NCBI GenBank assembly: GCA_046570105.1
Contig: JBKHVI010000034.1
Location: 1 to 30,806 of the forward strand
DNA: 30,806 nt
Origin: Bacteriovoracia bacterium
Lineage (GTDB): Bacteria; Bdellovibrionota; Bacteriovoracia; Bacteriovoracales; Bacteriovoracaceae
Reading direction: 5' to 3'
Part shown: positions 4,619-30,806 of the stretch, one piece after another
Numbering within the stretch: the stretch's first letter is position 1
How the letters are laid out: each line of letters begins with the position of its first letter
Notes under the pieces: generated by a model
The model's database searches: none
Told to the model about the DNA's origin: nothing
The model's input: only the letters and a program-made list of their open reading frames with translations
Made by a program: the position numbers and the translations under genes

Positions 4619-4714
4619 GAACGCTCAAGCCTCGCAAGCCTACTGCAAACTAAGAGAGATTTCTGATTGATTAACCGATGCTTTTTGTCGAGTTTGCGCG
4701 CCCGACCATTTCCC

Positions 4715-4744
4715 TTGCTAGTGGCGTTGAAGATGAGTCACAAT
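4715..4744 (+). promoter_or_regulatory. Putative sigma70 promoter of gspC (possibly leaderless)
   Basis: TTGCTA-18 nt-CACAAT, then 6 nt to ATG 4751; no SD. Confidence 0.4.
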
Positions 4745-4750
4745 AAGTTG

Positions 4751-5965: not shown

Positions 5966-5985
5966 CGTTTCCAAGGATGAGAAAC

Positions 5986-8529: not shown

Positions 8530-8535
8530 GGCACT

Positions 8536-10266
8536 ATGGGCCTGTCGGAAGAACTGTTAGAGAAAGTTGAGAATCAAAAAGAAAAGATTGGTGAGCTTTT
8601 AGTTAAGCACACCTCGTTGACTCGTCAACAGCTCGATGAAGCACTAGAAGTTCAGCGCATTGAAGGTGGCCTTTTGGGCGAAATCCTTCTGCGCAAAAAC
8701 TATATCCATCCTCACGATATTATCAAAGTGATCTGTCATCAAATCGATATCCCTTATCTCACAGAGATCAAAGTCGATGAGATTGATCCCAATATCGTGA
8801 AAGACCTCTCGATCAACTATGCCAAGCACCATGAAATTTTGCCCATATTAGAAACTGAGTACACAGTTACAGTGGCGATTTCAAATCCGTTCAACTTTAA
8901 TGCCGTCAATGATTTACACGCGACATTTAAAAAAGAAATTCGCACCGTCGTAACCACTCCCCTACGTATTCAGGACGCTATCAACCGCGTTTACGAGAAG
9001 GCCAACCGAAATCTGGTAAACGATATTGGTGATGAAGAATTCGAAGAGAATCTTGATCTCGATGGCCCCATTGATATCTTGGACGCCACCGCAGATGAAG
9101 CTCCGGTTATTCGTTTCGTGAACTCAATTATCTTCCGTGCGGTTAAAGAGCGTGCCTCAGATATTCATATTGAGCCCTATGACAAAGAAACGGTGTATCG
9201 CTTCCGCGTCAACGGAGTGATGCAAGAAATTCTTCGTCAGCCTAAGCGAACGCACGCTGCCGTCTCTTCCCGTATTAAAGTTATGGCAAAGCTTGATATT
9301 GCCGAGAAACGTCTTCCGCAAGATGGACGTATTAAAATCAAAATCGCTGGTAAAGATATCGATATTCGTCTCTCGACCATTCCGATTCAGGCGGGCGAAC
9401 GTATCGTTATGCGTATTCTTGAGAAGACCAACACCGTTCTGCGCCTAGAGAACTTAGGTTTTCGCGGACGTGTACTCGACGGCCTAATCGAACTCTCAGG
9501 CCACAAGCACGGTGTTCTTTATGTGACGGGTCCAACCGGTCACGGTAAAACGACAACTCTCTTTGCGGTTTTAGAACGCATTAATACTCCCGACAAAATG
9601 ATTATCACGGTAGAAGACCCGGTCGAATATGAGTTGGCCGGTATTTCGCAAATCCAAGTGAATCATAAAATTGATCTCTCGTTTGCGATTGCACTACGCT
9701 CGATTCTTCGTCAAAACCCAGACGTGGTGATGGTGGGTGAAACGCGCGATAAAGAAACCGCTGAAATGGCGATTAACGCCTCCCTTACCGGTCACTTCGT
9801 GCTTTCCACTCTTCACACCAATGATGCCTCATCAGCACCGACTCGTTTGATTGATATGGGTGTGCAGCCCTTCTTGATCTCATCATCACTGGTGGGAATT
9901 CTCGCGCAACGACTTGTACGCACACTTTGCTCAAGCTGTAAGCAGCCAGCGGTCTTGGGTGAATACGAAAAAGTCGCTCTCGAATTAGATAAAACTCCTC
10001 GCGATGCCACCATCTACAAAGCGGTTGGCTGTCCGAAATGTCATGGCTCAGGTTATGCGGGACGAACTGTCGTTTCGGAATTGTTGCTGATCAATGATGA
10101 AATCCGCGCGCTCATTATTCAAAAGACTGATGCGGCCACTATTAAAAAAGCGGCTATTCGCTCAGGTATGCGCACGCTACGCCAAGATGCGCTGGATAAA
10201 GTGTTTGAAGGAATGACTTCAGTCGAAGAAATTTTAAGAGCGATTAACTCAGAGGAGACTGAGTAA
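8536..10266 (+). CDS. gspE: Type II secretion system ATPase
   Basis: ASDIHIEP, LDIAEKRLPQDGR, Walker A GPTGHGKT, TVEDPVE, LRQNPDVVMVGETRD, TGHFVLSTLHTN, CxxC...CxxC zinc motif. Confidence 0.96.
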   Translation: MGLSEELLEKVENQKEKIGELLVKHTSLTRQQLDEALEVQRIEGGLLGEILLRKNYIHPHDIIKVICHQIDIPYLTEIKVDEIDPNIVKDLSINYAKHHEILPILETEYTVTVAISNPFNFNAVNDLHATFKKEIRTVVTTPLRIQDAINRVYEKANRNLVNDIGDEEFEENLDLDGPIDILDATADEAPVIRFVNSIIFRAVKERASDIHIEPYDKETVYRFRVNGVMQEILRQPKRTHAAVSSRIKVMAKLDIAEKRLPQDGRIKIKIAGKDIDIRLSTIPIQAGERIVMRILEKTNTVLRLENLGFRGRVLDGLIELSGHKHGVLYVTGPTGHGKTTTLFAVLERINTPDKMIITVEDPVEYELAGISQIQVNHKIDLSFAIALRSILRQNPDVVMVGETRDKETAEMAINASLTGHFVLSTLHTNDASSAPTRLIDMGVQPFLISSSLVGILAQRLVRTLCSSCKQPAVLGEYEKVALELDKTPRDATIYKAVGCPKCHGSGYAGRTVVSELLLINDEIRALIIQKTDAATIKKAAIRSGMRTLRQDALDKVFEGMTSVEEILRAINSEETE

Positions 10267-10267
10267 G

Positions 10268-11485
10268 ATGCCCATTTATAATTACAAGGGCCTCGATCGT
10301 ACCGGCAAGGAAGTCAAAGGTACTCTCAACATTGACTCGATCATCTCCGCCAAACAAAAGATTCGCTCATCAGGCGTGATGCTCGTAGATATTCGTGAGC
10401 AACGCTCACAAGCTGCCGGCGGTGGTGGCTCAATGATGGCGCGCTTTCAAGGGCGTGTGACAGTAGAAGATCTCGCACTCATGACTCGCCAGTTTGCCAC
10501 TCTGATTAAAGCGAAAATTCCCGTTGCTGAGGCACTCTCCGCCCTGGTTGAGCAAGTTGATAATGAAACGCTTCGAATCGTCATGTCAGAAGTTCGCCAA
10601 AAAGTGAACGAAGGTGCCTCTCTCGCAGATGCCCTTGGCGGTCATCCCAAAATTTTCACTAGTGTCTATGCCAATATGGTGAGTGCTGGTGAAGCCTCAG
10701 GTACTTTAGAAATTGTACTTCTACGTTTGGCGGATTTTACTGAAGGCCAAATGAAGCTTAGAAATAAAATCAAAGGCGCCATGACCTATCCGGTGATTAT
10801 GGGCTTTTTTGGTTTTCTGATGATGAACGTTATTTTTATTTTTGTTATTCCCAAAATCGCCAAGATTTTCGTTTCCATGAAAAAAGAGCTCCCCCTCCAA
10901 ACCAAGATCACCATTTGGATTTCTGATTTTATGCAGAATTACTGGTGGGCGGTCATTATGGCGATGATTGGGACTTGGTACTTAGTGAAGCGTTATATTG
11001 CAACGCCAAAGGGCGAAGCTCAATGGCATGCGCTGCAACTCAAGCTTCCTATCGTGGGTCTGTTGATAAAAATGATCAACGTAAGTCGTTTTTGCAGCAC
11101 CCTTGCCACACTGCTTAACTCGGGTGTTCCCATTCTCACAGCGATGACGATTGTTAAAAATCTCGTGCCTAACGTTCACATGAAAGATGCTATCGAGAAG
11201 GCCCGTATTTCCGTCTCAGAGGGTGCTACGCTGACTGGTCCACTGATTGCATCAGGTCATTTCCCAGCTCTCGTGACCCATATGATTCGCCTAGGAGAAA
11301 AGTCAGGTGAACTCGAACCGATGCTTAAAATCGTTTCAGAAAACTACGAGGACCAGGTAGAATCCAAAATCGGTGGATTGACCTCAGTTCTAGAACCCAT
11401 CATGATGATTATGCTGGGTCTAGGGGTGGCTTTCATCGTATTTGCCGTTGTTGTTCCGATGATGAGCCTCAACAGCGTCCGCTAA
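10268..11485 (+). CDS. gspF: Type II secretion system inner-membrane platform protein F
   Basis: AGEASGTL, AMTYP, GEKSGELEPML, LEPIMM; three TM segments. Confidence 0.95.
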   Translation: MPIYNYKGLDRTGKEVKGTLNIDSIISAKQKIRSSGVMLVDIREQRSQAAGGGGSMMARFQGRVTVEDLALMTRQFATLIKAKIPVAEALSALVEQVDNETLRIVMSEVRQKVNEGASLADALGGHPKIFTSVYANMVSAGEASGTLEIVLLRLADFTEGQMKLRNKIKGAMTYPVIMGFFGFLMMNVIFIFVIPKIAKIFVSMKKELPLQTKITIWISDFMQNYWWAVIMAMIGTWYLVKRYIATPKGEAQWHALQLKLPIVGLLIKMINVSRFCSTLATLLNSGVPILTAMTIVKNLVPNVHMKDAIEKARISVSEGATLTGPLIASGHFPALVTHMIRLGEKSGELEPMLKIVSENYEDQVESKIGGLTSVLEPIMMIMLGLGVAFIVFAVVVPMMSLNSVR

Positions 11486-11515
11486 TTTTTTCAGTCTCAG
11501 AATAAGGAGAATGTT

Positions 11516-11944
11516 GTGAGAAATAATCAAGCTGGTATGAGTATTCTAGAGATTTTGATTGCCCTAACTCTTTTGGGCCTAGCTGGTACATTTGTCGCCG
11601 GTAAAGTTTTTGAAAACCTTCAAGAAGGTAAAGTTCAAACGACAAAAATCCAAATCAAAAGCTTAGGCGATCGTCTCAAAGAATTCCGTCGTGATTGCGG
11701 CTTTTTCCCTACTACTGACCAAGGTTTTGATGCCCTCATCACTAAACCTGAAGGCGGCGGCCGTGAATGTAAGAAGTATTCACCATCTGGTTACATCGAT
11801 GGCGGAAAAATTCCTACTGATCCATGGGATGCAGAATATATCTATGAGTCTGACGGCAAAGCTTTTACCATTATCTCATACGGTGCAGATAATGCTGAAG
11901 GCGGCGAAGATTTTGATGCAGATATCAACTCGAAAGATCTCTAA
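11516..11944 (+). CDS. gspG: Major pseudopilin G
   Basis: AAGGAG SD, GTG start; prepilin site QAG|MSILE; FPTTDQGFDAL, DPW, SYGADNAEGG..DADI. Confidence 0.92.
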   Translation: MRNNQAGMSILEILIALTLLGLAGTFVAGKVFENLQEGKVQTTKIQIKSLGDRLKEFRRDCGFFPTTDQGFDALITKPEGGGRECKKYSPSGYIDGGKIPTDPWDAEYIYESDGKAFTIISYGADNAEGGEDFDADINSKDL

Positions 11945-12614
11945 ACTCTCAAACGACCAAGGTTTCTCTTTAATAGAAATCTTGGTCGCGCTATTTCTAG
12001 CGGCCCTCATTTTTTTGGCGATCCCCTCTTCTGAAGACTCTCGCCGACACCAAGACCTTCAATCAGCAGTAGACGATCTTGATCGCGCTGTCCGCTTTTC
12101 ATCCCAAGAAGCGATTCTTCGCAACACCGTGGTGCGCTTGCGCGTAGATATGGATAAAAGTCCAGTGGAGTATACCGTTGAGTACGGCCCAAGTGAAAAT
12201 CTGGTGCTCCCTACGCTGATGGATCCAGAAAAACTGGATTTAGAAGAAGCTGAAAAAGAGAAAAAGAAGATGGGCCAGTTAGATGGTCAATTTACTACGG
12301 TCGAAGAGTTTGAAGAGATCACTCGGGAGTTCTCCGCCGAAGTTGAGTTAATGGGAGTGGCCTCCCAGTTTCAAAAAAAACTTATTCGTGATCAAAGAGC
12401 TGCCATTTATTTTTACCCTACTGGTGAGCGTGATGGGGCCCTGCTCTTTTTTGGAACGCAAGATGAGCTCGCAGTACTGGAAATTGAGCCCTTTCAAGAT
12501 AAAACACGCGCCTCCTACTATCCTGCCCCCACGCAGGAAGGTGAGATTGCGAAAGCCGACAATTTCCGAGAGACTAAGATGGAGGAAATCGTCAAAACGT
12601 GGCTGGATAAATGA
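11916..12614 (+). CDS. gspH: Minor pseudopilin H
   Basis: Prepilin site QG|FSLIE plus hydrophobic helix; IYFYPTG motif; follows gspG. Start placed at ATG 11916 because the ORF-track extension lies inside gspG. Confidence 0.8.
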   Translation: MQISTRKISKLSNDQGFSLIEILVALFLAALIFLAIPSSEDSRRHQDLQSAVDDLDRAVRFSSQEAILRNTVVRLRVDMDKSPVEYTVEYGPSENLVLPTLMDPEKLDLEEAEKEKKKMGQLDGQFTTVEEFEEITREFSAEVELMGVASQFQKKLIRDQRAAIYFYPTGERDGALLFFGTQDELAVLEIEPFQDKTRASYYPAPTQEGEIAKADNFRETKMEEIVKTWLDK

Positions 12615-13177
12615 TGTCTCCGCAAGGCCCGCGAAATACCCAAGGCTTCTCACTTTTAGAAGTCATGATTGCGCTTACTATGTTTGCGGTGTTTATCAGC
12701 GCCTTTCTGGTTTCTCAAGGCTACAACATCTCTGACTCAGCGATTAGTGAAGAACAACTTAAGCTCCACATGCTGTGTGAGCAGAAAGTAAATGAGATCA
12801 TGATCAATCCGCCCAAATTTACGAATGCCATGATTGATCTTAAAGAAACGAAAACCTTTGAAGAAAAAGAATACGCTAATTACAGCTGGACCATTGAATG
12901 GAAGAAACTCAAGGTTCCAGACTTTGGAAAGATCTTTGCCGCCAACGCCAAAGAAGGGGCCGCTGGTGAAGATAATAAGTATTTTAACGAAGATAATAAT
13001 GCCGAAAGAAATCAGTCTCTCGAAACCATGGTCTTTGATAAATTAAAGGAAAATATCGAACGCGTCATTTGGCAATTGCGTTTAACTGTTACAAACAAAG
13101 AAACAAATTACTCTTACACCCTCTCACGTTGGGTGACCAATCATGATGAACCGATCCAACTCAATCTTGCGCTCTGA
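12611..13177 (+). CDS. gspI: Minor pseudopilin I
   Basis: Prepilin site QG|FSLLEVMIAL; YSWTIEW and LRLTV motifs; gene order. Confidence 0.8.
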   Translation: MMSPQGPRNTQGFSLLEVMIALTMFAVFISAFLVSQGYNISDSAISEEQLKLHMLCEQKVNEIMINPPKFTNAMIDLKETKTFEEKEYANYSWTIEWKKLKVPDFGKIFAANAKEGAAGEDNKYFNEDNNAERNQSLETMVFDKLKENIERVIWQLRLTVTNKETNYSYTLSRWVTNHDEPIQLNLAL

Positions 13178-14048
13178 AGCTGGTCTCACGCTTCTCGAGA
13201 TCATGATTTCGATCGTGCTGTTGTCCTTTGTCATGTTGGGTGTCGTGGCGATTATTGATAATTCACAAAACACGAAAGATCGCACCGTTCAATCGGATCG
13301 CGATAATTTGCAAATTGAAACAGCGATGGCACGCATGGAGTGGGACTTTTCACAAATCTGGTCGCCGCTTTACTACACTCGCAAATTCCAAGGAAATCTC
13401 GATCCGCAAAACAATCCTGGCATTGAAGAGGTCAGCTATCTTTATGACAACCATCCCCGCTTTAGAGGCCCAAGTCAGGAAGGTCTCCCTATCCCACGTT
13501 TTTTATTGCGTGAAAAATCAGATTTAGTTTTTCTCACTACTTCAAATCGCAGAAAGTTAGAAGACCAACGTCAGTCGCATTTTATGTGGGTGCGCTACTA
13601 TCTCGATGACATCACCATTGAAGCAGATGGTGCCGGTGAAGAAAGAACCACCAAAGCGCTCCTAAGACAAACTTTCTCCGATGATCCCTGGGCCAAAGAA
13701 GAACTCGCTTTTGAAAACACACGATCGTCTACTCTCTTAGAAAATGTTGAATCCCTCGAATTTGCCTTCTGGAGTCCCTCGACTCGTAAATGGGAAACAA
13801 ATATTTTATCAGTGGTGGATGGTGAATCACTTTTGCGTGGAGTTCAGATCTCACTTAAGTGGAAAGATACCAATGGCAATGAGCGAGAAACGATTCGCTG
13901 GTTGCGCCCTTATTGGCCATCTGTTGTTCCACAAGACCCTATCCCTAATGTGAATGCGGGCGCTCAAGGTGGTGCTGGTGCTCAAGGTGGCGTCAACGGT
14001 GGAACCAATGCCGGGACTCAAGGCGGTGAAGATGAGGATGAAGAATGA
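13143..14048 (+). CDS. gspJ: Minor pseudopilin J
   Basis: Prepilin site AG|LTLLEIMIS; LLENVESLEFAFW motif; gene order. Confidence 0.8.
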   Translation: MMNRSNSILRSEAGLTLLEIMISIVLLSFVMLGVVAIIDNSQNTKDRTVQSDRDNLQIETAMARMEWDFSQIWSPLYYTRKFQGNLDPQNNPGIEEVSYLYDNHPRFRGPSQEGLPIPRFLLREKSDLVFLTTSNRRKLEDQRQSHFMWVRYYLDDITIEADGAGEERTTKALLRQTFSDDPWAKEELAFENTRSSTLLENVESLEFAFWSPSTRKWETNILSVVDGESLLRGVQISLKWKDTNGNERETIRWLRPYWPSVVPQDPIPNVNAGAQGGAGAQGGVNGGTNAGTQGGEDEDEE

Positions 14049-15469
14049 AATATCCTCATAAGAATGAATCGGGCGTAGCTCTTATTATGGTTATGACAGC
14101 ACTCTTAGTGCTGATGGCCCTATGGGGAGAATTTACTTTTGAAAGTAAGCTGTCGCGTATCAAGACCACTAATATGCTGGATAAAAGTCAGTCACGCTTG
14201 TTGGCCGAATCAGGTATCGAATTGGCGATGACCCGCTTAAAGCTCTACAAAGAGGCCTACAATATTTGGAGTAAAAACGAATCGGCCCGCAACAGTGTCT
14301 CGATCCAAATGATCAATCAAATCTGGGAAATTCCTTTCGTCTACCCGATTCCTCAGTTGCCCAATGTGGGTGCTCAAGTCAAAGCGGCGATTGATGAGTT
14401 TCAAAAAGAGTCACTGCTTGAAGGTGAGATGAAGATCAGCGTGCAAAATATTTCTAATAAACTGAATCTCAATATGATTCGTCTTTCGAGTCTCAAAAAC
14501 CAAACTACAGGTGGCAGCTTAGGTGGCGCACAAGGTGGAGGCGGAGGCGGCGAAGACGGAGAAGATGGTGGTGCTGGTGGTGGCGGAAATGACCAAGATG
14601 CCAACTTCAGTATGGAGCAACAACTCGTCAATCATCTTATTTTACGTATTCGTGAAAAAGGTGAAGAGGAAGAGAGCTTTAGAGATCGCTTTGGAAGTGT
14701 TGATCCCCAGCAGCTAGTGGCGAATTTAAAATTCTATATCTCTGATCGAAATCCACGCCGTCAGAACTCCACCGCCATTGACATGCTGATGGATAATTCT
14801 GAGCAGCTATTTCAAGAGGCCAAGATCACTCCTAAGCATGGGCCACTCTCCTCTTTTAGTGAAATCTATCTCATTCCAGGCTGGGATGATGCCATTGTCG
14901 ATTTGATGAAAAATGAATTTGATGTTTTCCCAGTGGTCATGATCGATCTCAATAAAATTACTGAAAACATGCTGAGACTCCTGATCCCCACAATTAATCT
15001 TGATGAGGTGAAAGAGTTTTTTACTTGGCGAGACAATCCAGAAGAGCCGCAATTTTTTAACACCCTCGATGACTTCAAACGCTACGTTGTAGAGATCGGT
15101 AATATTTTAAGTGAGCCGGCCTTTGATGAGCAGTTTGGTAAATACAAAGCGCAAGGAATTCAATTCGGCGCTGCCCCTACACTCTTTCGCATTCTCTCAG
15201 AGGGCACGCTAAATCGCTCGAAGACAACTCTAGTGGCCACTGTTTCTATGCCGGTGCAGCCCACCAATACACAAGGTGGTCAGACTGCCGGACAGCAAGC
15301 GGGTCAACAAGCAGGACAACAAGGTGGCCAGACTGCCGGACAAACGGCTGGCCAGCAAGGCGGCCAAACAGCAGGGCAAACCGCCGGACAACAAGGCGGT
15401 CAGGCCGGAGGCGCCAACCAATCTACTCAACTTCTTGATCCACGCATTATCGAACTACAAGTGAATTAA
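14045..15469 (+). CDS. gspK: Minor pseudopilin K
   Basis: SG|VALIMV without E5, as typical of GspK; KLNLN, PLSSFSEIYLIPGW, IDLN motifs; ATGA overlap with gspJ. Confidence 0.88.
   Translation: MKYPHKNESGVALIMVMTALLVLMALWGEFTFESKLSRIKTTNMLDKSQSRLLAESGIELAMTRLKLYKEAYNIWSKNESARNSVSIQMINQIWEIPFVYPIPQLPNVGAQVKAAIDEFQKESLLEGEMKISVQNISNKLNLNMIRLSSLKNQTTGGSLGGAQGGGGGGEDGEDGGAGGGGNDQDANFSMEQQLVNHLILRIREKGEEEESFRDRFGSVDPQQLVANLKFYISDRNPRRQNSTAIDMLMDNSEQLFQEAKITPKHGPLSSFSEIYLIPGWDDAIVDLMKNEFDVFPVVMIDLNKITENMLRLLIPTINLDEVKEFFTWRDNPEEPQFFNTLDDFKRYVVEIGNILSEPAFDEQFGKYKAQGIQFGAAPTLFRILSEGTLNRSKTTLVATVSMPVQPTNTQGGQTAGQQAGQQAGQQGGQTAGQTAGQQGGQTAGQTAGQQGGQAGGANQSTQLLDPRIIELQVN
15278..15409 (+). repeat. Intragenic 12-nt tandem repeat in gspK encoding 11 GQxx tetrapeptides
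   Basis: GQTA GQQA GQQA GQQG GQTA GQTA GQQG GQTA GQTA GQQG GQAG read directly from the sequence. Confidence 0.9.
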
Positions 15470-15501
15470 GCGGAAATATCTTTCAACACGCACAGTCGCT
15501 T

Positions 15502-15510
15502 TGTTACAAT
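15502..15510 (+). promoter_or_regulatory. Putative internal extended -10 promoter for gspLMN-ispA
   Basis: TGtTACAAT followed by 6 nt and ATG 15517, in the 47-nt gspK-gspL gap; no SD. Confidence 0.5.
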
Positions 15511-15516
15511 AATTCC

Positions 15517-17103
15517 ATGCATGTATTAGCCATTGACGCCGGTTCCTACTCGATCAAACACATCTCCACTATTTTGGATAAGCGAAAAGCTATTCATGTC
15601 GAGATGCGTGAGCACAATATTCTGCAAATGTTGGAAGAGAATCCCAACTGGGGAACGGTGGAAGAAACCACCCGGCAAATTATTTTACGTATCGTGGAAG
15701 ACACCGCTCGCCCAGACACGCGAATCGTAATTCATGTTCCACCTGAATCAGTTACCACCCGCTTTCTTACTCTGCCGGTAAAAAATCGCAAGAAAGCTGA
15801 GATGATGCTTCCTTTCCAATTGGAAGAAGATATCCCTTTTGGTTTGAATGAAGCGCACTTTGCTTGGTGCTTAGAAGTTAATCGTACTCAATCCATCGCA
15901 CTTGTTGCTCTGATGCGCGATCATGAGTTTGCTCCCTTCTATGCCCAGCTGGAATACTGGTCATCACCAGCTTCCGTCATTACTTCTGAAGCCTCAGTGA
16001 TGGATTCATTTTATTACGTCAATCGTATGGGGGGACCATTCTGCGTACTTGATGTTGGCCATCGCGCTACCAAAGCCTACTTCTTCTATAATTCAAAATT
16101 GATTGCCTCTCACGTGAGCTACGTGGGTGGTCGCCATATTGATGAAATGATTGCTCTCACTTATGGAATCGAACCCACTGAAGCCGTCATCTACAAACAT
16201 CAAAACGCTTTCGTGCTGACTTCTGGTCAGATGAATGAAGTGGACGATAATCAAAAAGAGTTTGCTCGCTTAATGGAGCAAGTCTTCAAGCCACTCGTAA
16301 ACGACTTCCATCGCTGGGAATTAGGTTTCCGTGTATCTCACGGTCTAAAAATTTCCCAAGTCTTCTTGTGTGGTGGAACCAGCAATATTAAAAATATGGC
16401 AAACTTTCTGACTGAAAAGTTTGCCGTGAAATGCACCATGCTGGAGTCCTTTGAAGGCGTTGATACCCACAAAGTAGATCTCAATGCTAAAAGTCGCAGT
16501 CGTTTTACACTTGTAAACATGATGGCGCTTTCGCTTCGTGCGAAAGGTCGCTTGATTAATCTATTAACTGGTAAATACGCCCAGGCCGCTCGTGGAGAAT
16601 TCCCTCTTCACACGCTTAGCTTCTTGGCCGTTCGTGCTACCGCAGTCACACTGGTCTTGTTGATAGCTTTGGTTACAAAGCGTGTCTTTATGACCATGGA
16701 CCTTCAAGCAGTGAATGCCAAAGTAACCAACACAGCAAGAAATCCTGCCTTGGGTCTTACAGCTCGCGAGAAGCGCTTGATCGCTACTCAGCCTGAACTA
16801 GTGGAAGCATCCCTGACTCGTAAACACCGGGCCGTGAGTCAACAGATCTCGACGCTTCAAGCAGCTGCCGACATCAAAGCACTCTCACCACTGGTGATGA
16901 TTTCAGCTGCCGCTGCCGGTGTTGAAGCCACTCTTGAGAGCATTACTGTCTCTGATACTGGGGATGTGAATGCGAGCTTTAGCGCTGAAAAACTTGAAAA
17001 CCTCACTCTCTTACAAACTAAGCTCAACAGCCTGAGCCTGCGTGATCTCCAGATCAATGTGAATAATGAAAAGAAAGAGCTCACTCTTTCTGGAGTTGAA
17101 TAA
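15517..17103 (+). CDS. gspL: Type II secretion protein L (PilM-like actin fold, TM and PilN-like domain)
   Basis: LAIDAGSYSIK, LPFQLEEDIPF, VLDVG, VFLCGGTS; TM AVTLVLLIALV; located between gspK and gspM. Confidence 0.8.
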   Translation: MHVLAIDAGSYSIKHISTILDKRKAIHVEMREHNILQMLEENPNWGTVEETTRQIILRIVEDTARPDTRIVIHVPPESVTTRFLTLPVKNRKKAEMMLPFQLEEDIPFGLNEAHFAWCLEVNRTQSIALVALMRDHEFAPFYAQLEYWSSPASVITSEASVMDSFYYVNRMGGPFCVLDVGHRATKAYFFYNSKLIASHVSYVGGRHIDEMIALTYGIEPTEAVIYKHQNAFVLTSGQMNEVDDNQKEFARLMEQVFKPLVNDFHRWELGFRVSHGLKISQVFLCGGTSNIKNMANFLTEKFAVKCTMLESFEGVDTHKVDLNAKSRSRFTLVNMMALSLRAKGRLINLLTGKYAQAARGEFPLHTLSFLAVRATAVTLVLLIALVTKRVFMTMDLQAVNAKVTNTARNPALGLTAREKRLIATQPELVEASLTRKHRAVSQQISTLQAAADIKALSPLVMISAAAAGVEATLESITVSDTGDVNASFSAEKLENLTLLQTKLNSLSLRDLQINVNNEKKELTLSGVE

Positions 17104-17738
17104 TGGAAGAAAAAATTCCACTCATCAAACGACTTGATACTTATATCTTCACTCAGCTTGATGAGTTCAGAAAGACACCAGGACACGCCAAGATTCTCGA
17201 TTTTTATGGCAGCCTAGAAGATGAGAGCCAAAAACTCTTTAAGTGGGTATTGCTGATCTCGACCTTTCTGATTCCTTTCATGCTTGTCGTGGTGATGTGG
17301 TGGCAAAATAGCGCCATTGAAAATGAGCTCAATAGCCGCATTGCCCTCGTCGAGCGTATGCAACAAATTATCACGCAAAATAGTGAAGTCGGTGGACTCT
17401 CCAGCAGTATTGCCGCTCCGACTGCTTTTACTTCGCAAGATGAGTTAAGTGGCCGCCTCTCTTCGGCCCTCTCCTCAATCGGTGTTGACCTTGCCAAAAT
17501 TCGCATCAACGGTTTCACGACAGACGTGGTCTCACCTCTCTTGACTCGCTCCGAGGCTGATTTTAAGTTCGACGGAGTCTCCACTGAGCAATTGATGGGT
17601 CTTCTCACGACACTTTTACAACGTGAACGTTTTCGTATCTCTGCTGTCCAAATCAAGCGCAATAATGAAACTAATCTTTTAGATGGCAGCTTTCACGGAG
17701 TCCACTTTGGTGAAACTCAGTTAGCCGACGAGGAATAA
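17103..17738 (+). CDS. gspM: Type II secretion protein M-like
   Basis: N-terminal TM, coiled coil, C-terminal FDGVSTEQLMGLL...FRISAVQI; TAATG coupling; assigned by gene order. Confidence 0.7.
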   Translation: MEEKIPLIKRLDTYIFTQLDEFRKTPGHAKILDFYGSLEDESQKLFKWVLLISTFLIPFMLVVVMWWQNSAIENELNSRIALVERMQQIITQNSEVGGLSSSIAAPTAFTSQDELSGRLSSALSSIGVDLAKIRINGFTTDVVSPLLTRSEADFKFDGVSTEQLMGLLTTLLQRERFRISAVQIKRNNETNLLDGSFHGVHFGETQLADEE

Positions 17739-18652
17739 TGGCGATCTCAAGTGATATTCGCAGTCTTGATCAAGTCAATTATGCGACTGGTATCCACAAG
17801 CTGCTGCTAACGGCCGCGCTTATCTTCGCTTTCATCTTTGCTTTCCTTGCCAACTTTCCCTTAGAAAAACAAATAGAGTCCCTGGTTCGTGCGCAAATTG
17901 CCAAAGTTCCTGGCTGCCGCATGAATTTTGAGAGTCTTCATTTTGAACTCTTTCTTCCGAAAGTTGTCCTCACTGACGTGAATCTGCCCGGCAGCTGTTT
18001 TGGTGGTTCAAAACCACTTAAGATGCGCCAGATGGCACTGCACTTCCAAGGCCCAAGCTTTGCTCCCTTAGGTGTGGCACTCAAGATGTCGATGGAACTC
18101 AAAGGGACACCACTGGCGGTGAAATACGCAGCGGGCGTGAACTCACAAGTTTTTAATATTCAGGAAGAGAACTTCCCGATTCAGGCCTTCTCTGAAGTTT
18201 TGGGATCAATTCCTAAAATGGAAGGAAATGTGAGCTTGAATGCTAAAGTCGCTATGGGCGGCCAGCAGATTCAAGAAATGAAAGTACTAGTCGAGTCGCA
18301 AAACATGGAAGTACTGCCGCAAACCTTGAGCGACATTAAAATTCCTCGTCTCGCCATTGGTAATCTTCTGTTAAAACTTGAATCCGAAGGGCCACGTAAG
18401 TTAATGCTGCGTGAATTCGTGATCGGCAAAATGGACGCTCCTATTCGCGGTAAATTTTCCGGCACCATCGATCTGGCTTCAGGTGCCGTCGCTTTCTCAC
18501 CGATCAATATTAAAGGCGAAGCGGCGCTTTCTCCTGAATTCATGAATGCCTTTCCTATTTTGAACCTTATGCTGCCGCAGTTTCCGCAAAAAGATGGCTT
18601 CTATCAGATCAAGCTCGGAGGGACGCTCGGGAATCCACGTCCACAGCCGTAA
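17738..18652 (+). CDS. gspN: Type II secretion protein N-like
   Basis: N-terminal TM followed by NFP, beta-rich body, C-terminal IKLGGTLGNPR; gene order. Confidence 0.75.
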   Translation: MAISSDIRSLDQVNYATGIHKLLLTAALIFAFIFAFLANFPLEKQIESLVRAQIAKVPGCRMNFESLHFELFLPKVVLTDVNLPGSCFGGSKPLKMRQMALHFQGPSFAPLGVALKMSMELKGTPLAVKYAAGVNSQVFNIQEENFPIQAFSEVLGSIPKMEGNVSLNAKVAMGGQQIQEMKVLVESQNMEVLPQTLSDIKIPRLAIGNLLLKLESEGPRKLMLREFVIGKMDAPIRGKFSGTIDLASGAVAFSPINIKGEAALSPEFMNAFPILNLMLPQFPQKDGFYQIKLGGTLGNPRPQP

Positions 18653-24673: not shown

Positions 24674-26350
24674 TCACTCCTGTTTGGTGTTTAAAACCAG
24701 CACAGAGTTATACATATGAAATGCGTGAGTGCGAATCTTGCGGAGCGCCACAACCATATCAGAGAAGGTTAACGCCGTAATAGGCTTATAGGTTCCCTTC
24801 GAGATGCGATCTAAGTGCTTGTCACGAATAGAGTCGGCCCAAATTTGCAGCTCTTCACTCTTAGATGTCAGGCGCGCTTTATCATTGGTCGATGACTTCT
24901 CAAGACCTGCGACGGCCATTTCAAAGAAGCCCTGCACTTCATCCATAAAGCTGAAAAACTCGTTACGGCTCTCACCTTCAAGTGTCTCACCACCGCGGAA
25001 GCGTTCACGATACATCGCCAAGCGCTCGAGATAATCGGCGCAACTTTCAAGTTCATCTGAAATTTTAATCAGTGCCTGCGTTTGCTCTGACTGATGGTGA
25101 GAAAGTGGACGCTCCATCACGTAACACAAGAAGACAGTGACTTCTTTGTGAATATTATCCGTGATGCGTTCATAATCGAGAATTTTGGCGAGTTTTTTAG
25201 GATCATCTTCCCCTTCATGCCAATACTCGCGCGTGAGTTTATACATACGAGAAACGATATCTGCCATTTTGCGAATTTCTGACTCGGCTTGAATCAAACT
25301 CGTCGCCGGCAACATATCGGCTGGATTTCCTAAGAGAAGTAATTGAGGCACTTCTTTCGTCGTGCTGTTATCTGGCGTTATTTTGGTCACAAACGCCGCC
25401 AGTGTATTCAAGAAAGGTAAAAATGCGAGAGTCGCCGTGATGTTAAAAATCGAGTGCGCCATAGCAATATGGGCGTTGATATTAGGCTGAGTTCCATCCG
25501 CTAATTTTAAATTCGGATCACCTGGCACCATCCAACTCACAAAATCAAAATAATACGGAAGAATAATAAACATCACCATCACGCCTAAAACGTTAAAGGT
25601 GGCATGCGCACGAGCGGCTCGTTTAGCGTTGATGCTGGCGCCTACTGAGGCCAGGAGTGCTGTAATCGTCGTTCCGATGTTCTCACCCAAAACAAGCGCC
25701 ACAGCGGTGTGATAATTAATCACGCCCGTCGTAGCCAGCGCCATGGTAATACCGAGCATTGCTGAAGAAGATTGCACCACCATCGTGAGGGCACAGCCCA
25801 TCAAGATAGAAGCGAAATAGGCTTGGTAGGTATCACCGGCAAAATAGGAAATAGAATTTAAGAATGCTTCACTTTCACGCAACGGAACAAAGGCATCACT
25901 CATGGTCTTAAGACCAATGAACACCATACCGACACCTAAGATAGCGCGACCAACGTGTTGCCACTTATTTGATTTAGAGAAAAGACCGGGAATAAAACCT
26001 AGGCCCACAAGAAGAAGGCCGTACTTATCGACTTTAATCGAAATAATCCAACCCGTGATGGTGGTTCCGATGTTCGCACCGAAGATCACACCAATCGCTT
26101 GCTTCAAAGTCATGAGGCCTGCATTCACCATACCAACTGTCATCACAGTAGTGATCGATGAACTCTGAACGAGCATCGTGACACCCAGACCAACTCCGAC
26201 TGCCATCACTCGATTTCCAGTAATGGAATTGATGATTTTGCGAATGGCATCACCAGTCATGGCCTGCAATCCATCGGACATGAACTTCATACCGAAGAAG
26301 AAAATCCCGAGTCCTCCTAAGAGGGTGTAGATGATACTAAAGGTCTGCAT
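24674..26350 (-). CDS. Na+/phosphate cotransporter (PNaS, NptA/YjbB family) with C-terminal PhoU-like domain
   Basis: Two QSSS repeats, GANIGTT and GENIGTT, ARAHATFN; helical C-terminus with DELESCADY. GGAG SD favours ATG 26350. Confidence 0.93.
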   Translation of the reverse strand: MQTFSIIYTLLGGLGIFFFGMKFMSDGLQAMTGDAIRKIINSITGNRVMAVGVGLGVTMLVQSSSITTVMTVGMVNAGLMTLKQAIGVIFGANIGTTITGWIISIKVDKYGLLLVGLGFIPGLFSKSNKWQHVGRAILGVGMVFIGLKTMSDAFVPLRESEAFLNSISYFAGDTYQAYFASILMGCALTMVVQSSSAMLGITMALATTGVINYHTAVALVLGENIGTTITALLASVGASINAKRAARAHATFNVLGVMVMFIILPYYFDFVSWMVPGDPNLKLADGTQPNINAHIAMAHSIFNITATLAFLPFLNTLAAFVTKITPDNSTTKEVPQLLLLGNPADMLPATSLIQAESEIRKMADIVSRMYKLTREYWHEGEDDPKKLAKILDYERITDNIHKEVTVFLCYVMERPLSHHQSEQTQALIKISDELESCADYLERLAMYRERFRGGETLEGESRNEFFSFMDEVQGFFEMAVAGLEKSSTNDKARLTSKSEELQIWADSIRDKHLDRISKGTYKPITALTFSDMVVALRKIRTHAFHMYNSVLVLNTKQE

Positions 26351-26374
26351 GTCCTGACTCCCCAAAGTCCCTGA

Positions 26375-26686
26375 CTAGTCCACCATTGTGGCAAACCAAA
26401 TCGGGAGAATGATGTACAAGATGGTGTCTCGTACTAAGTAAAATAAGAAAAAATAGATGAAGGCTTTGGGGCCTTTGAGGAAGAGATTCTCGAGTCCCAT
26501 GTATTGCGCTTTCTTAGACATGGCGACCATAAAACGGCTCTTGCCCCAGTGCTTGACGAAAAAACTCGCAGCACCATCCACCCGCCGATCAAAACGCAGG
26601 AAAGCCTCTTTTAAAAATCCCGGAATCATGGCCTTCCACCATGAGTTCTTTGGGACTTCTACGGACGTATCCTGGTGTAATGACAT
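26375..26686 (-). CDS. Small hypothetical membrane protein
   Basis: 103-aa ORF with hydrophobic C-terminus AFIYFFLFYLVRDTILYIILPIWF; co-oriented and closely spaced with the transporter. Confidence 0.7.
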   Translation of the reverse strand: MSLHQDTSVEVPKNSWWKAMIPGFLKEAFLRFDRRVDGAASFFVKHWGKSRFMVAMSKKAQYMGLENLFLKGPKAFIYFFLFYLVRDTILYIILPIWFATMVD

Positions 26687-26711
26687 AGCGTGTTTAACCT
26701 TGGGGCAAGAC

Positions 26712-26750
26712 TAACAAAGACGGTTAGAAGCTGGAATTAACCGTCTGTTA
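26712..26750. promoter_or_regulatory. Inverted repeat (candidate operator or hairpin)
   Basis: AGACGGTTA (26718-26726), 11-nt spacer, TAACCGTCT (26738-26746), flanked by TAAC/GTTA. Confidence 0.6.
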
Positions 26751-26770
26751 AGATTACGTCAAGAAAGGGC

Positions 26771-26813
26771 TGACAAAAATCATCCCCGTCTATGACATTT
26801 CTGTGACAAAAAT
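26771..26813 (+). promoter_or_regulatory. OmpR/PhoB-type direct-repeat box, TGACA-N6-TGACA, with a third in-phase half-site
   Basis: TGACA at 26771, 26793 and 26804 (spacings 22 and 11); TGACAAAAAT occurs twice. Confidence 0.75.
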
Positions 26814-26828
26814 TCGTAGCTAGCTGGA

Positions 26829-26834
26829 TACACT
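26829..26834 (+). promoter_or_regulatory. Putative -10 element of hemA (possibly leaderless)
   Basis: TACACT, 6 nt, ATG 26841; no SD. Confidence 0.45.
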
Positions 26835-26840
26835 GGCTTC

Positions 26841-27752
26841 ATGGTGACTTCCCTCAATCTTTGGAACTTTCCGGCTGGCGTTGCGGTTAGCGTTAATAAG
26901 GCTCATATGAGTTTTATTTTACCTACCTGCCAGCGCACCATCGTCGTGAGTTACGAGCAAAGACCGTTCGAGCATCACCCACTTCCTCTCCATGAAAAAG
27001 CCGAAGGCCAGGACGCCTACCTCTATTTACTGGAAACCATCTGTGGTTTGAAATCGAAACTTGTCGGTGAAAACGAAATCGTAGGCCAATTTAAAGAGGC
27101 CTACCAAACTTTCACTCAGCACGAAGATCGTGACTCAAAATTGCTGCTCATTCTTGAGAAACTTTTCAAAGACGCTAAAGAAATCCGCACTGAACATTTG
27201 ATTGGCATTGGTCAGAAGACTTACGCTCACCTCACCCGTCGTCATTTCTCGGGCAAAATGAAAAATGCACCCATTTTGATCACGGGATCTGGTCAATTAG
27301 CAGAAGATCTTATTAATCAATTTAAAAAACGCACTCCGATCGTGCTTTGTTCCCGCAACAAGGGACGCGCACAAGAATTGGCGCAAATCCATGGCTGCTC
27401 GCTCCTCGATTGGTCTGAGCGCGATGAATGGAAGAACTTTGCTTTTATTGCCAATACAATTGGCTTTGAAGGCGTTCTTCTCGACCATCCATTCTTTGTG
27501 GAATGGGCACAGACTCACCAGAATCGTTTAATGGTCGATCTTGGCTCACCGAGCTGCCTCCATACTTCACTGGGTCGCGACGAAGGTTTGTTGCGTCTGG
27601 AAGATATTTTCGCTGAAGGTGCGCTGATGGAAGATCAGAAGCGCGAAAAGATTCAAACCGCTCAAAAGGCCATGCTCGACATTGTTGAACGCCGTGCACG
27701 CTGGCTTGAAGAAAAGTCTCTCAAGTGGCAGACTGCCACCACGAATCTCTAA
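26841..27752 (+). CDS. hemA: Glutamyl-tRNA reductase, short form
   Basis: TCQR (canonical TCNR), GLKSKLVGENEIVGQFKEAY, AKEIRTE, Rossmann ITGSGQLA, MVDLGSP; first gene of the hem operon. Confidence 0.88.
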   Translation: MVTSLNLWNFPAGVAVSVNKAHMSFILPTCQRTIVVSYEQRPFEHHPLPLHEKAEGQDAYLYLLETICGLKSKLVGENEIVGQFKEAYQTFTQHEDRDSKLLLILEKLFKDAKEIRTEHLIGIGQKTYAHLTRRHFSGKMKNAPILITGSGQLAEDLINQFKKRTPIVLCSRNKGRAQELAQIHGCSLLDWSERDEWKNFAFIANTIGFEGVLLDHPFFVEWAQTHQNRLMVDLGSPSCLHTSLGRDEGLLRLEDIFAEGALMEDQKREKIQTAQKAMLDIVERRARWLEEKSLKWQTATTNL

Positions 27753-27773
27753 TCGTTTTTGCGAGAGAAAATC

Positions 27774-29273
27774 ATGTATAAAATCGGGACGCGTGGCTCA
27801 CTCCTCGCCGTAACTCAATGTACGCTTGTGAAGATGCTGCTCGAACAGTTGAGTGGCCAATCTTTTGAGTTAGAACTGATCAAAACCCAAGGCGATCAAA
27901 TTGTTGATCGCCCCTTGTGGCAACTTGAAGGCAAAGATTTTTTCACCAAAGAACTCGATGAAGCTTTGCTCAACAAAAAAGTCGATTTGGTGGTGCACTC
28001 CTATAAAGACTTGGGCTCTGATCGCCCCGAAGGAATTAAACTCGCGACGATCACAGAACGCAGATATGCTCACGATGTTTTGCTCATTAAAAAATCTACA
28101 GTAGAGAAACTCAAAAACTGGAGCGGTGATTTTATTGTGGGAACCAGTTCTCCCAGAAGAATCGTCAATCTCACGCGCGATCTGCCGGCCTTTTTACCTG
28201 GCTCACCCATTGTTAAATGCGAAACACTTCGTGGCAATATCAATACGCGAATCCAAAAACTCAAAGACGATAAGTATCACGCCATCACGCTGGCGCTCGC
28301 CGGTGTCGATCGCTTGGCACAGCTTGATAGTTCACTCAAGGAACTTAAAGATCTGCTCGATGGTCTTACTTTTGCGATCCTGCCTTTGAGTATTTTCCCC
28401 ACGGCCGCTGCTCAAGGAGCACTCGCAATTGAAACGCGCGGAGATAATCCAGAACTTGAGGCCATCCTTAAAAAAATTCATCACGAAAGAACCGCTGAAG
28501 AAGTCCGTCGCGAACGCCTGGCCTTTAAATCATACGGCGGGGGCTGTCATCTCGCAGTTGGCATTCATGTCCGTGAGATGGATGGGGATTTCTTGCACTT
28601 TCATCGCGGCGAGACGGATGGCAAAGACATCCGTGTGAAAAAACGTGAAGGCGCCACAATTGCTATGGAACAAGTACGCCAGGTTTTCTTAGGACAAGGC
28701 AAACATGCCAAAGCTCTGTGTGATGAAAACTTTATTAAAACAGCTCTGCCCGTGAAGCTTGATCTAAAAAAATCTCACGTTTTTGTGACCACCGGACACA
28801 CTCTTGATGCGGTGACAGAGCAGCCGGCCAGTCTATGGGCAGCAGGACCTGAGACTCGCAAAAAATTAGTCGCGAAAGGTTTCTGGGTTCATGGTGGTGC
28901 CGACAGTATGGGCCATGGCGAATTAGTAAAACTTAAAATCTCCAAAGCGCTGCAGTTGATGCTTGAGGGTGATGATTGGAAAGTTCTTACCCATAGCAAT
29001 TCACAGTCACCGATTGGCGAGGTGATTACTGCTTATAAGCATGAAATGAAACCACTCACTCAAGAACAAATCGAAAACCTTGAGACAGTCACCCACGCTT
29101 GGTGGTCAAGCTATCCACAGTATGAAGCCTATGTGTCGGCCGTGCCTGCACTCAAACGAGCGCGCCACTTTTGTGGACTTGGTAAAACCATACAAAGTTT
29201 TAAACAAAACGAAATTGAGGCGACGGCCTTAACTGATTCAAATGAATTCCTTCAACTCACGGGACTTGTATGA
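27774..29273 (+). CDS. hemC: Hydroxymethylbilane synthase fused to a HemD-like domain
   Basis: IGTRGSLLA, FFTKELDEAL, VHSYKD, GTSSPRR, RGNINTR, AAAQGALA, GGC cofactor cysteine; about 200 extra C-terminal residues. Confidence 0.93.
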   Translation: MYKIGTRGSLLAVTQCTLVKMLLEQLSGQSFELELIKTQGDQIVDRPLWQLEGKDFFTKELDEALLNKKVDLVVHSYKDLGSDRPEGIKLATITERRYAHDVLLIKKSTVEKLKNWSGDFIVGTSSPRRIVNLTRDLPAFLPGSPIVKCETLRGNINTRIQKLKDDKYHAITLALAGVDRLAQLDSSLKELKDLLDGLTFAILPLSIFPTAAAQGALAIETRGDNPELEAILKKIHHERTAEEVRRERLAFKSYGGGCHLAVGIHVREMDGDFLHFHRGETDGKDIRVKKREGATIAMEQVRQVFLGQGKHAKALCDENFIKTALPVKLDLKKSHVFVTTGHTLDAVTEQPASLWAAGPETRKKLVAKGFWVHGGADSMGHGELVKLKISKALQLMLEGDDWKVLTHSNSQSPIGEVITAYKHEMKPLTQEQIENLETVTHAWWSSYPQYEAYVSAVPALKRARHFCGLGKTIQSFKQNEIEATALTDSNEFLQLTGLV

Positions 29274-30529
29274 ACTCTAATGAGCTTTTCGAAAAATCAA
29301 AAAAATATGTACCCGGTGGCGTGCATTCGCCGGTTCGCTCTTTCAAAGGTCTTCACACCACACCTCGTTTTATCAACCGGGCCGACGGAGCGATGATCTG
29401 GGATGAAGACGGCAAAAACTACGTCGACTTCTGTATGAGCTTTGGTCCTTTGATTCATGGCCATAAAGATCCGGATGTAAAAAAAGCCATCGAAGGTGCT
29501 CTCGAGCGTGGTTGGAGTTATGGCGCTTGTGAGAAATATTCTCTTGAGCTGGCCGAATACATGGTCGAGCGTTTGGGTTTTGTGGATCAAGTGCGCTTCA
29601 TGAATTCAGGTACGGAAGCTGTGATGACCGCGGTACGGCTCGCACGTGGAATCACTAATCGCGAAAAAATTATTAAATTTAACGGCTGCTATCACGGACA
29701 TCTCGATGGCATGTTGATCAAGGCTGGCTCAGGACTTGCTGGCACCGCTGATGCTAGTTCAAAAGGTGTCACAGCAAAACAAGCCGCTGATACATTAATT
29801 GTTGAATTAGGTGATCTCGAGGCGATTGAAGAGTGCTTTAAAGCGCACCCCAATCAAATTGCTGCCATTTTTATTGAACCGCTGCCGGCGAATAATGGTC
29901 TTTTGGTGCAGACGACTGAGTATCTCCAGGGCCTGCGAAACTTGTGTGATAAATACGGCGCACTCTTAGTGTTTGATGAAGTTATTTCGGGCTTTCGCGT
30001 TCACTTCGGTGGCATGGCGCTTTTAACCGGAGTTATCCCCGATCTCGTGACCTATGGGAAAATTATCGGTGGTGGTATGCCAGTGGGAGCTGTCGCTGGA
30101 AAGCGCGCTCATATGGAATTCTTGGCACCAGTGGGTCCAGTTTATCAAGCGGGCACTCTCTCTGGAAATCCTGTCGCCATGGCAGCAGGTTTGGCCAACA
30201 TGAAAAAGCTCACACCCGAAGCTTATCAGCGCCTCGATCAGCAAAGTGCAGCGGTAGTTGCTTTGTTGAATGAGTGGAGTGAAGGACATGGCTTTGCTGA
30301 TTATAGCGTCCAGCGCTTTGGTTCACTCTTCTGGGCAGCTCCTACAAAGCAGAAACTCAATAACATCACCCAGATTCCAGAAACACTCATGCCACGTTTT
30401 TATGAACTCTTCAAAGTGCTGCTAGATAAAGGCATCTATCTGGCACCAAACGCTTGGGAAGTGGGATTCATCTCACTTGCTCATGATGAAAAAATTCTCG
30501 CGGAGATGCGCAAGCGCTTATGGTCTTAA
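29270..30529 (+). CDS. hemL: Glutamate-1-semialdehyde 2,1-aminomutase
   Basis: PGGVHSPVRSF, SGTEAVM, GCYHGH, FDEVISGFR, GKIIGGGMPVG, QAGTLSGNP. Confidence 0.97.
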   Translation: MNSNELFEKSKKYVPGGVHSPVRSFKGLHTTPRFINRADGAMIWDEDGKNYVDFCMSFGPLIHGHKDPDVKKAIEGALERGWSYGACEKYSLELAEYMVERLGFVDQVRFMNSGTEAVMTAVRLARGITNREKIIKFNGCYHGHLDGMLIKAGSGLAGTADASSKGVTAKQAADTLIVELGDLEAIEECFKAHPNQIAAIFIEPLPANNGLLVQTTEYLQGLRNLCDKYGALLVFDEVISGFRVHFGGMALLTGVIPDLVTYGKIIGGGMPVGAVAGKRAHMEFLAPVGPVYQAGTLSGNPVAMAAGLANMKKLTPEAYQRLDQQSAAVVALLNEWSEGHGFADYSVQRFGSLFWAAPTKQKLNNITQIPETLMPRFYELFKVLLDKGIYLAPNAWEVGFISLAHDEKILAEMRKRLWS

Positions 30530-30806
30530 GTAAAACACCGCGCTGGTTTTATCTGATCGTTGCTTTTCTAGGGCTCCTCGTCCTGGCCCTGGGTATTTGG
30601 TGGCTCTATTTATTGACCGTCTTTGCACAAATGATGGGGCCAGAAAAAAGTGGCGTTCTCAATATGCTGAAATGGGAAGGCACTACTTTTCTTTTGCTCT
30701 TAATGGCCGCTGCTATCAGTATCTCTGTGCTTTACTGGCGCGACTTAAAAAAAACACGCGTGCTACAAGCTCTCTTTGCTTCTCTCACTCATGAACTCAA
30801 AACACC
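30520..30806 (+). CDS. Membrane sensor histidine kinase (5' part only; runs off the window)
   Basis: Hand translation from ATG 30520: MVLSKTPRWFYLIVAFLGLLVLALGIWWLYLLTVFAQMMGPEKSGVLNMLKWEGTTFLLLLMAAAISISVLYWRDLKKTRVLQALFASLTHELKT(P). Two TM helices followed by a HisKA H-box; overlaps the hemL stop. Confidence 0.88.
   Translation, partial: MVLSKTPRWFYLIVAFLGLLVLALGIWWLYLLTVFAQMMGPEKSGVLNMLKWEGTTFLLLLMAAAISISVLYWRDLKKTRVLQALFASLTHELKT

Follow-up and report, generated by a model that had tools for sequence, protein, structure and literature searches.

The closest described relative of the system considered here is the HemKR two-component pair of Leptospira (Hklep/Rrlep; LB014/LB015 in L. interrogans). 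In L. biflexa, HemK autophosphorylates and passes the phosphate to HemR, which in its phosphorylated form (HemR~P) binds the hem-box and activates hemA (PMC11426443, PMC2266917), while 5-aminolevulinic acid (ALA) or a downstream porphyrin switches on the phosphatase of HemK (PMC11426443). What HemK senses, and how, is left open in that report. Within Bdellovibrionota, Louvel 2008 linked a two-component system to heme genes in Bdellovibrio bacteriovorus in one sentence marked 'data not shown' (PMC2266917), a passage that gives no box, range or phylogeny; the main text of Imelio 2024 (PMC11426443) and its preprint does not mention Bdellovibrio. Our literature search, which covered few subscription papers, returned nothing beyond Louvel 2008 on the box, the regulon or a transfer in Bdellovibrionota. 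An earlier note on the DNA studied here had known of no description of such a circuit in the lineage, a view that Louvel's statement on the linkage in B. bacteriovorus shows to be partly wrong.

Here we examine one contig (C34) from a 3.0 Mb, 87.8%-complete assembly (G000) of a Bacteriovoracia bacterium; the contig is the window, 30,806 nt in all. Our analysis confirms that positions 26793-30806 hold the 5' portion of an operon, hemA-hemCD-hemL-hemK-(hemR-hemE), with the contig stopping at the kinase H-box. Very probably, this locus is orthologous to the HemKR circuit of Leptospira and works by the mechanism proposed below; the circuit is thus already known from Leptospira and is not a new system. 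We compared 122 loci, 102 of them from kinase-bearing families (the window included), 19 from families f4, f7 and f11 and one from L. interrogans, chosen by HemC and kinase matches independently of the box and as a subset (in f6, for instance, 14 of the 25 genomes sampled). In what follows G denotes genomes, L loci, f family codes and g genera, f1 being the window's own family.

The first 10 nt of the kinase reading frame lie within the end of hemL, and the frame breaks off with the contig after residue 95. Compared by eye, 94 of these 95 residues agree with the kinase of G007, the nearest relative, and the fragment matches the L. interrogans kinase with E 5e-12 (32%). The G040 kinase finds the L. 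interrogans kinase on chromosome II at 167 bits, the next of the matches listed scoring 77, and no further orthologue was found in plasmid sequences. Named homologues of the kinase are Bacteriovoracaceae or Bdellovibrionota, and a Bacteriovoracia bacterium locus (phylum Bdellovibrionota) carries a HemA 81% identical to that of the window. At an E of 1e-30 the kinase profile finds nothing in f4 (0/14), f7 (0/6), f11 (0/13) and several small families. In G007, whose HemCD is 95% identical to ours, the kinase is overlapped by a 229-aa OmpR-type regulator followed by hemE, and the order hemL-kinase-regulator-hemE recurs in 96 of the 102 kinase-family loci, the other six ending at contig edges. The regulators share an R-T-V/I-D-N recognition helix (97/98, L. 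interrogans included). PDB 4q7e, which we take to be L. biflexa HemR, is the best match of the L. interrogans regulator and, behind full-length RegX3, the best receiver-only match of the G005 regulator. L. interrogans itself has hemA-hemCD-hemB-hemL-kinase-regulator-hemE-hemN, an order also found in f14, f15, f19, f21, f24, f25 and f27. Genes that lie downstream of hemE in G006 have counterparts on contig C112 of the source assembly, and for the source organism a regulator is to be expected from its relatives. Similarity searches together with the kinase and regulator trees described below support the homology to Leptospira HemKR that had been proposed from the sequence alone, and none of the outcomes that the note had named as refuting its proposal turned up.

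Other arrangements were encountered alongside. A metagenome locus of 78% GC (L194:7001-14016) has the box with canonical HemA, hemC, hemD, hemB and hemE, a kinase with W-W/M-x3-E and a regulator with RTIDN; another of 67% GC (L210:1298-7966) has short HemA, HemCD, kinase, regulator, hemE and hemN without hemB or hemL. In f4 (L050, L051, L144-L149) an f9/f13-type hemCD-hemE-hemG-hemH stretch that lacks the short hemA, hemL, the kinase, the regulator and the box faces a canonical hemA and a second hemC.

The box itself, TGACATTTCTGTGACA, lies 48-33 nt upstream of the hemA ATG (26841), exactly where it had been reported. The genome scan for TGACA-N6-TGACA proposed at the same time does return a single exact copy in the 3.0 Mb assembly, at hemA; because about three copies are expected at random, that uniqueness proves nothing, and we rejected it as evidence. 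We likewise set aside the raw count of the pattern across the phylum, which occurs in 140 of 151 genomes and is uninformative. As single-copy occurrence could not discriminate, the box was tested by conservation, the chance of an exact box within a given 350-nt upstream stretch being about 2-4e-4. After three loci were dropped (two without upstream DNA, one without hemA), 99 of 100 kinase-lineage loci carry the box, or a close variant of it, ahead of the operon and none of the 18 f4/f7/f11 loci does, so that its conservation at hemA, a premise of the original proposal, is borne out. Seventy of the 99 boxes are exact, 18 read CTACA-N6-TGACA and 11 carry one mismatch; the downstream half-site is TGACA in all 99, and the conserved boxes extend the half-site to RTGACA. 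The CTACA variants are all from f1 (18 of 37 loci, for example L039, L057 and L065), a departure from Leptospira shared by many relatives of the source organism, and inspection by eye of the C-terminal stretch of 33 f1 regulators revealed no change to match it. Kinase and box are both retained in families f6 and f20, whose HemA is long and canonical and whose HemC and HemD are separate proteins, while f4, f7 and f11, also with canonical HemA, have neither; the box therefore tracks the kinase and not the HemA type. Among side observations, G024 has no detected hemA and its box directly precedes hemCD (L041:4749-6348), hemA was likewise not detected in the G132 locus (L064), and a box-like promoter precedes hemE-hemN-hemH-hemG-hemA-hemC at L250:5937-7050, with no kinase in the stretch examined.

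The distance from the box to a -10 element is fixed as well. A TAnnnT hexamer follows 19 or 20 nt past the box in 73 of the 99 box-bearing loci, with ATG or GTG 6-8 nt beyond it in 43; in L. interrogans the box (L052 5141-5156) is followed after 19 nt by TATAGT. From the position of the -10 hexamer, the hemA transcript would be leaderless or nearly so; leaderless transcripts are frequent in L. interrogans (PMC5243855). As an independent check, an unbiased metagenome scan for box, -10 and ATG placed 20 of the 119 matches listed at a hemA start codon. Reading TGACA as a sigma70 -35 element was rejected, the spacer being 19-20 nt and a promoter scan of 26300-27100 returning 0 sites. The lone TGACA upstream of the box was also discarded as a third half-site: a half-site at -22 recurs in only 2 of 99 loci and is probably incidental here.

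Table 1. Coordinates of the hem locus and its divergent neighbours in the window.
Feature	Position	Strand	Remarks
Na+/Pi cotransporter with PhoU domain	24674-26350		divergent, beyond the 103-aa open reading frame, 0.45 kb from box
Divergent 103-aa open reading frame	26375..26686	-	no Pfam or NCBIfam match
Lone TGACA	26771..26775	+	22 nt upstream of box, in phase with repeat
hem-box TGACATTTCTGTGACA, pattern TGACA-N6-TGACA, 11-bp direct repeat	26793..26808	+	predicted HemR~P site
-10-like hexamer TACACT	26829..26834	+	20 nt downstream of box, 6 nt upstream of ATG
Short glutamyl-tRNA reductase HemA, 303 aa	26841..27752	+	TCQR catalytic motif kept
HemC-HemD fusion, 499 aa	27774..29273	+	ATG 27774; HemD-fold domain about 28686-29270
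Glutamate-1-semialdehyde aminomutase HemL, 419 aa	29270..30529	+	4-nt overlap with hemCD
HemK-type histidine kinase, 5' part	30520..30806	+	two membrane helices; W27-W28, M49, E53, H91, T95

The biosynthetic genes agree with the earlier description of a short HemA (303 aa), a HemC-HemD fusion, here supported by its HemD fold, hemL and an overlapping kinase gene with two membrane helices (10-nt overlap). HemA matches GlutR_N, has a weak NADPH-domain match and falls below every hemA cut-off; the domain search of the protein gave no match to the dimerisation domain. It shares 29% identity with its L. interrogans counterpart across 191 aa (E 4e-23). As a separate observation, HemA closes with GW(E/D)(E/D)L in Leptospira and in most families with a short HemA, and this motif is missing from the window protein, which differs from Leptospira in this respect, and from several f1 rows; the motif may substitute for the dimerisation domain. 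The HemC part passes the TIGR00212 cut-off. The last 195 aa were missed by Pfam HEM4 (the best of 80 members reaching E 0.12) and by a PDB sequence profile, and are 30% identical to the C-terminus of L. interrogans HemCD (E 2e-14). A model of this extension from an 80-row alignment has a pLDDT (predicted local distance difference test) of 95.8; Foldseek matches it to 3re1 (E 2.5e-5) and a VIA structure comparison to 4es6 (Z 13.6, root-mean-square deviation 3.1, 189 residues aligned). The top structural matches are all HemD, uroporphyrinogen III synthase (Z 9.3-13.6), the first unrelated one scoring 6.3. As modelled, the HemC-HemD fusion is real as a fold, and from its context and the NCBI name of the Leptospira orthologue the extension presumably has HemD activity. 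HemL passes PRK00062 and misses TIGR00713 (487 against a cut-off of 527). In G033 a single 805-aa reading frame (L045:10491-12908), with the box in front, appears to fuse HemA with HemC-HemD.

Our alignments further indicate where the kinase may perceive its signal. All 110 of the 110 kinases aligned have W27, W28, E53, H91 and T95; in a 98-row set, with L. interrogans numbering, W26, W27 and E67 are invariant and M63 is present in 94, f6, f20 and two others having been dropped from that set by the anchor pattern, with the motif visible in them by eye. Paralogous f1 kinases lack the W-W/M/E motif. These claims rest on aligned columns: a loose W-W...E pattern was set aside as a marker, as it matches 116 of 116 hem-linked kinases and also one of seven unrelated ones. 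The f26 sensor search returned close relatives only (19). The loop between the membrane helices varies several-fold in length, and the model predicted for the window's genus is a helical hairpin with a 2-residue turn, so that the periplasmic loop found in Leptospira is nearly absent there. In L. biflexa the 32-residue loop of HemK can be replaced without losing complementation and removal of the membrane part abolishes it (PMC2266917), and the His+4 Thr, part of the H98/T102 pair, is needed for the ALA-triggered phosphatase (PMC11426443). Since the residues are invariant and the loop is variable, and since L. biflexa HemK can do with another loop but not without its membrane part, W-W of helix 1 and M-x3-E at the start of helix 2 are the most likely readers of the signal, at the outer face of the membrane, and not the loop. 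An amine, for instance ALA or porphobilinogen, would be suited by a glutamate with a tryptophan pair, and heme by paired methionines. As the ligand, such an amine is in our estimate only slightly more likely than a porphyrin or heme, neither reaching even odds; that the invariant membrane residues are purely structural seems unlikely. Two details concern the sequence of this region: at 30660-30806 run X1 offers two alternative 256-nt contigs, which may explain the contig end but add no sequence beyond it, and position 30761 is C in all four runs, giving Ala81 as in G007 and not Val.

The gene order, the orthology, the conserved box and its fixed distance from the -10 hexamer are direct observations of this analysis, and we propose the following mechanism for them. 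The 11-bp repeat, at about -48 to -33, would be occupied by two HemR~P DNA-binding domains in head-to-tail arrangement, which would recruit RNA polymerase to a promoter that has no properly spaced -35. A single transcript running from hemA to hemE would include hemK and hemR, and the system would thereby feed its own expression, until an ample tetrapyrrole supply, perceived by W-W and M-x3-E at the outer membrane face, shuts it off.

The reach of such a regulator appears to be narrow. A site matrix was built from the relatives' boxes and genomes were scanned at a cut-off of 13 bits with the reversed matrix as control; the window box is the top site of the source genome at 28.3 bits, the next scoring 16.5, and the incomplete genome has 13 sites of at least 13 bits against 5 in the control. 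In contrast to Leptospira, hemB, hemH and a hemN-like gene lie elsewhere in the source genome, without a box in the matrix scan. With a stricter pattern, 29 sites were found in 31 f9 genomes, against 5 control matches; 21 of them stand at hemA, and the other 8 have no shared neighbours. No transporter or heme-oxygenase site emerged from the scans of the source and f9 genomes, from which weaker sites would escape. The L. biflexa HemR regulon includes hmuO, exbBD and a TonB receptor (PMC11426443), and the incomplete source genome gives no sign of that wider set. The regulon thus looks, from these scans, like essentially one promoter, narrower than in L. biflexa. The divergent neighbour of the box is a Na+/Pi transporter in 23 of 99 loci, hemB in 17 and another gene in 59; where it is hemB, the same box may serve both directions.

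That neighbourhood supplies a competing account: read from the opposite strand, the repeat would be a Pho box (TGTCA-N6-TGTCA) through which PhoB controls the divergent 103-aa gene and the Na+/Pi cotransporter. The Pho half-site is TGTCAY, of which RTGACA is the reverse complement, and the cotransporter with its PhoU domain does lie divergently only 0.45 kb off. A Na+/Pi transporter, however, adjoins only the 23 box-bearing loci just mentioned, the distance from box to divergent reading frame varies widely whereas that from box to the hemA -10 is fixed, and f11, with the strongest PhoB-like matches (12/13), nevertheless has no box at hemA; on these neighbour counts, spacings and the f11 contrast we reject control by PhoB as very improbable. 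The source assembly, incomplete as it is, also holds no PhoB over the cut-off and no PstS-family match. A different challenge is that the box is read by some other RTxDN regulator, the embedded pair being a passenger. A paralogous RTxDN regulator does occur in f1, and the same box and RTxDN helix stand at unrelated two-component loci from metagenomes (L192, L211), so the box does not belong to HemR alone; it is a predicted mark of a regulator subfamily whose tie to HemR comes only through co-inheritance with the operon. L192, L196 and L211 share both the box and the promoter spacing beside their unrelated kinase-regulator pairs, the L196 helix having DT. Yet box and embedded pair are co-inherited in 17 families and Leptospira and are both missing at the f4, f7 and f11 hemA, and five further OmpR-like or receiver proteins inspected in the source assembly all lack the RTxDN helix, and we regard a passenger role as highly unlikely. 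Prey contain tetrapyrroles, and the earlier note had suggested that heme synthesis is tuned to prey-derived precursors; a predator-specific circuit would sense ALA, porphyrins or heme from the prey and halt synthesis in or on it. External ALA does shut the L. biflexa system down (PMC11426443). That suggestion nonetheless finds no support here, and we hold it to be unlikely: the candidate sensing residues, box and gene order are the same in non-predatory Leptospira, the same parts occur in the very high-GC locus L194 with its canonical HemA, we saw no lineage-specific sensor part and no transporter or heme-oxygenase site in the regulon, and predation by the source organism is itself presumed from its class only.

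Apart from these alternatives, several points count against an orthologous HemKR circuit controlling hemA here, as do the f1 paralogue and the unrelated loci L192 and L211 described above. The f1 locus G014 has the kinase and no box. The regulator and hemE were not found in the 87.8%-complete source assembly, the contig ending in the kinase, and the OmpR-type regulator anticipated downstream is accordingly seen in relatives alone. Those relatives are kin, so that 17 families with and three without the kinase are non-independent draws. In L. biflexa a double mutant left hemA almost unchanged, which makes control composite there (PMC11426443), and the literature searched contained no reports of binding, phosphorylation or expression for members of Bdellovibrionota. 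We nonetheless retain the HemKR interpretation as very probable.

Our trees also bear on how Leptospira came by this operon. In a kinase tree of 55 of 123 rows, with long-branch and redundant rows left out and rooted on two f1 paralogues, all 10 Leptospiraceae rows form one clade, sister to f9/f13/f23 (100/100), within a 99/99 kinase clade that includes f1 and the f14 group and stands apart from the paralogues. Keeping Bdellovibrionota together was rejected by the approximately unbiased (AU) test (p-AU 0.0225), a constraint formally named after the first tree was seen. Quick trees of the regulator, HemL, HemE and HemCD agree (support 99, 94, 99 and 100), those of HemC, HemE and the regulator also with outside outgroups, and a four-gene joint tree (26 rows, one Leptospira, simple model) gives support 100 and p-AU 9e-7. 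These phylogenies lend good support to a block transfer between a Bdellovibrionia-type lineage and Leptospiraceae. Within the phyla sampled in these trees, transfer into Leptospiraceae is the simplest reading and, in our estimate, the likely one: the short HemA and the HemCD fusion, both derived, are common to three deep Bdellovibrionota clades that together with outgroups bracket Leptospira, and Leptospiraceae remain one clade. That the operon instead moved from Leptospiraceae to the f9/f13/f23 ancestor, or that both acquired it from an unsampled third phylum, is rather less likely, although Leptospira is sister to, not inside, f9/f13/f23 in the best-sampled trees, which counts against the inward direction, and the cassette is mobile, f1 genus g9 carrying an f13-type copy and L210 nesting in the f14 group. 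One f1 genus (L049 and L066; G018 and G140) has an f13/f9-type operon with divergent hemB, a within-phylum replacement, and matches to Bacteroidota and Acidobacteriota clusters are leads only.

What is new, then, is the phylum-wide box and its geometry, the near single-promoter regulon, the candidate sensing residues and the probable en-bloc transfer into Leptospiraceae. Some 100 divergent orthologues narrow the sensor to three invariant residues (W26, W27 and E67 in L. interrogans numbering, M63 being near-invariant) that are testable in saprophytic L. biflexa, and Bdellovibrio genetics gains a defined regulator-operator pair. Leptospira makes heme and Borrelia and Treponema do not (PMC2266917); the congruent trees offer an explanation for heme-making Leptospira, namely acquisition of a ready-regulated operon. 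Taken jointly, these elements would mean that the whole Leptospiraceae heme pathway came with its sensor, regulator and operator as a block from a Bdellovibrionia-type ancestor, that most Bdellovibrionota inherited HemKR as their ancestral heme thermostat, that the promoter design is fixed (box, 19-20 nt, -10, leaderless hemA), and that the invariant Trp-Trp/Met/Glu form a ligand pocket at the membrane surface, which would either take up ALA or porphobilinogen as an amine site or hold a Met-ligated heme on the dimer axis; as a whole we see this picture as evenly poised between right and wrong.

Two further observations concern the rest of the window. The 103-aa reading frame is kept divergently beside the box in many f1 genomes, often preceding a Na+/Pi cotransporter, and a long run of reading frames at 4667-18652 (+) resembles, as judged by eye, a type II secretion cluster (secretin, ATPase, platform, pseudopilins).

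Among known systems, PhoB/PhoR and its Pho box share with this locus the OmpR/PhoB fold, an 11-bp direct repeat and the same core on the opposite strand; here, in contrast, the box is inverted relative to the promoter, the kinase is of a short intramembrane type, no PhoB model cut-off is reached and the recognition helix has DN where PhoB has DV. HssS of Staphylococcus and ChrS of Corynebacterium are intramembrane heme sensors that drive heme efflux or degradation; likened by description only, they share tetrapyrrole sensing at the membrane and differ in that output. The heme-cluster system of B. bacteriovorus stands in the same phylum and has the same linkage. It is with Leptospira HemKR that the correspondence is closest, extending over the short HemA and the HemC-HemD fusion, a kinase and an OmpR-family regulator placed, as in pathogenic Leptospira, between hemL and hemE (here, for regulator and hemE, from relatives), a histidine with its His+4 threonine behind two membrane helices, and a TGACA-N6-TGACA box upstream of hemA that is followed after 19-20 nt by a -10-like hexamer.

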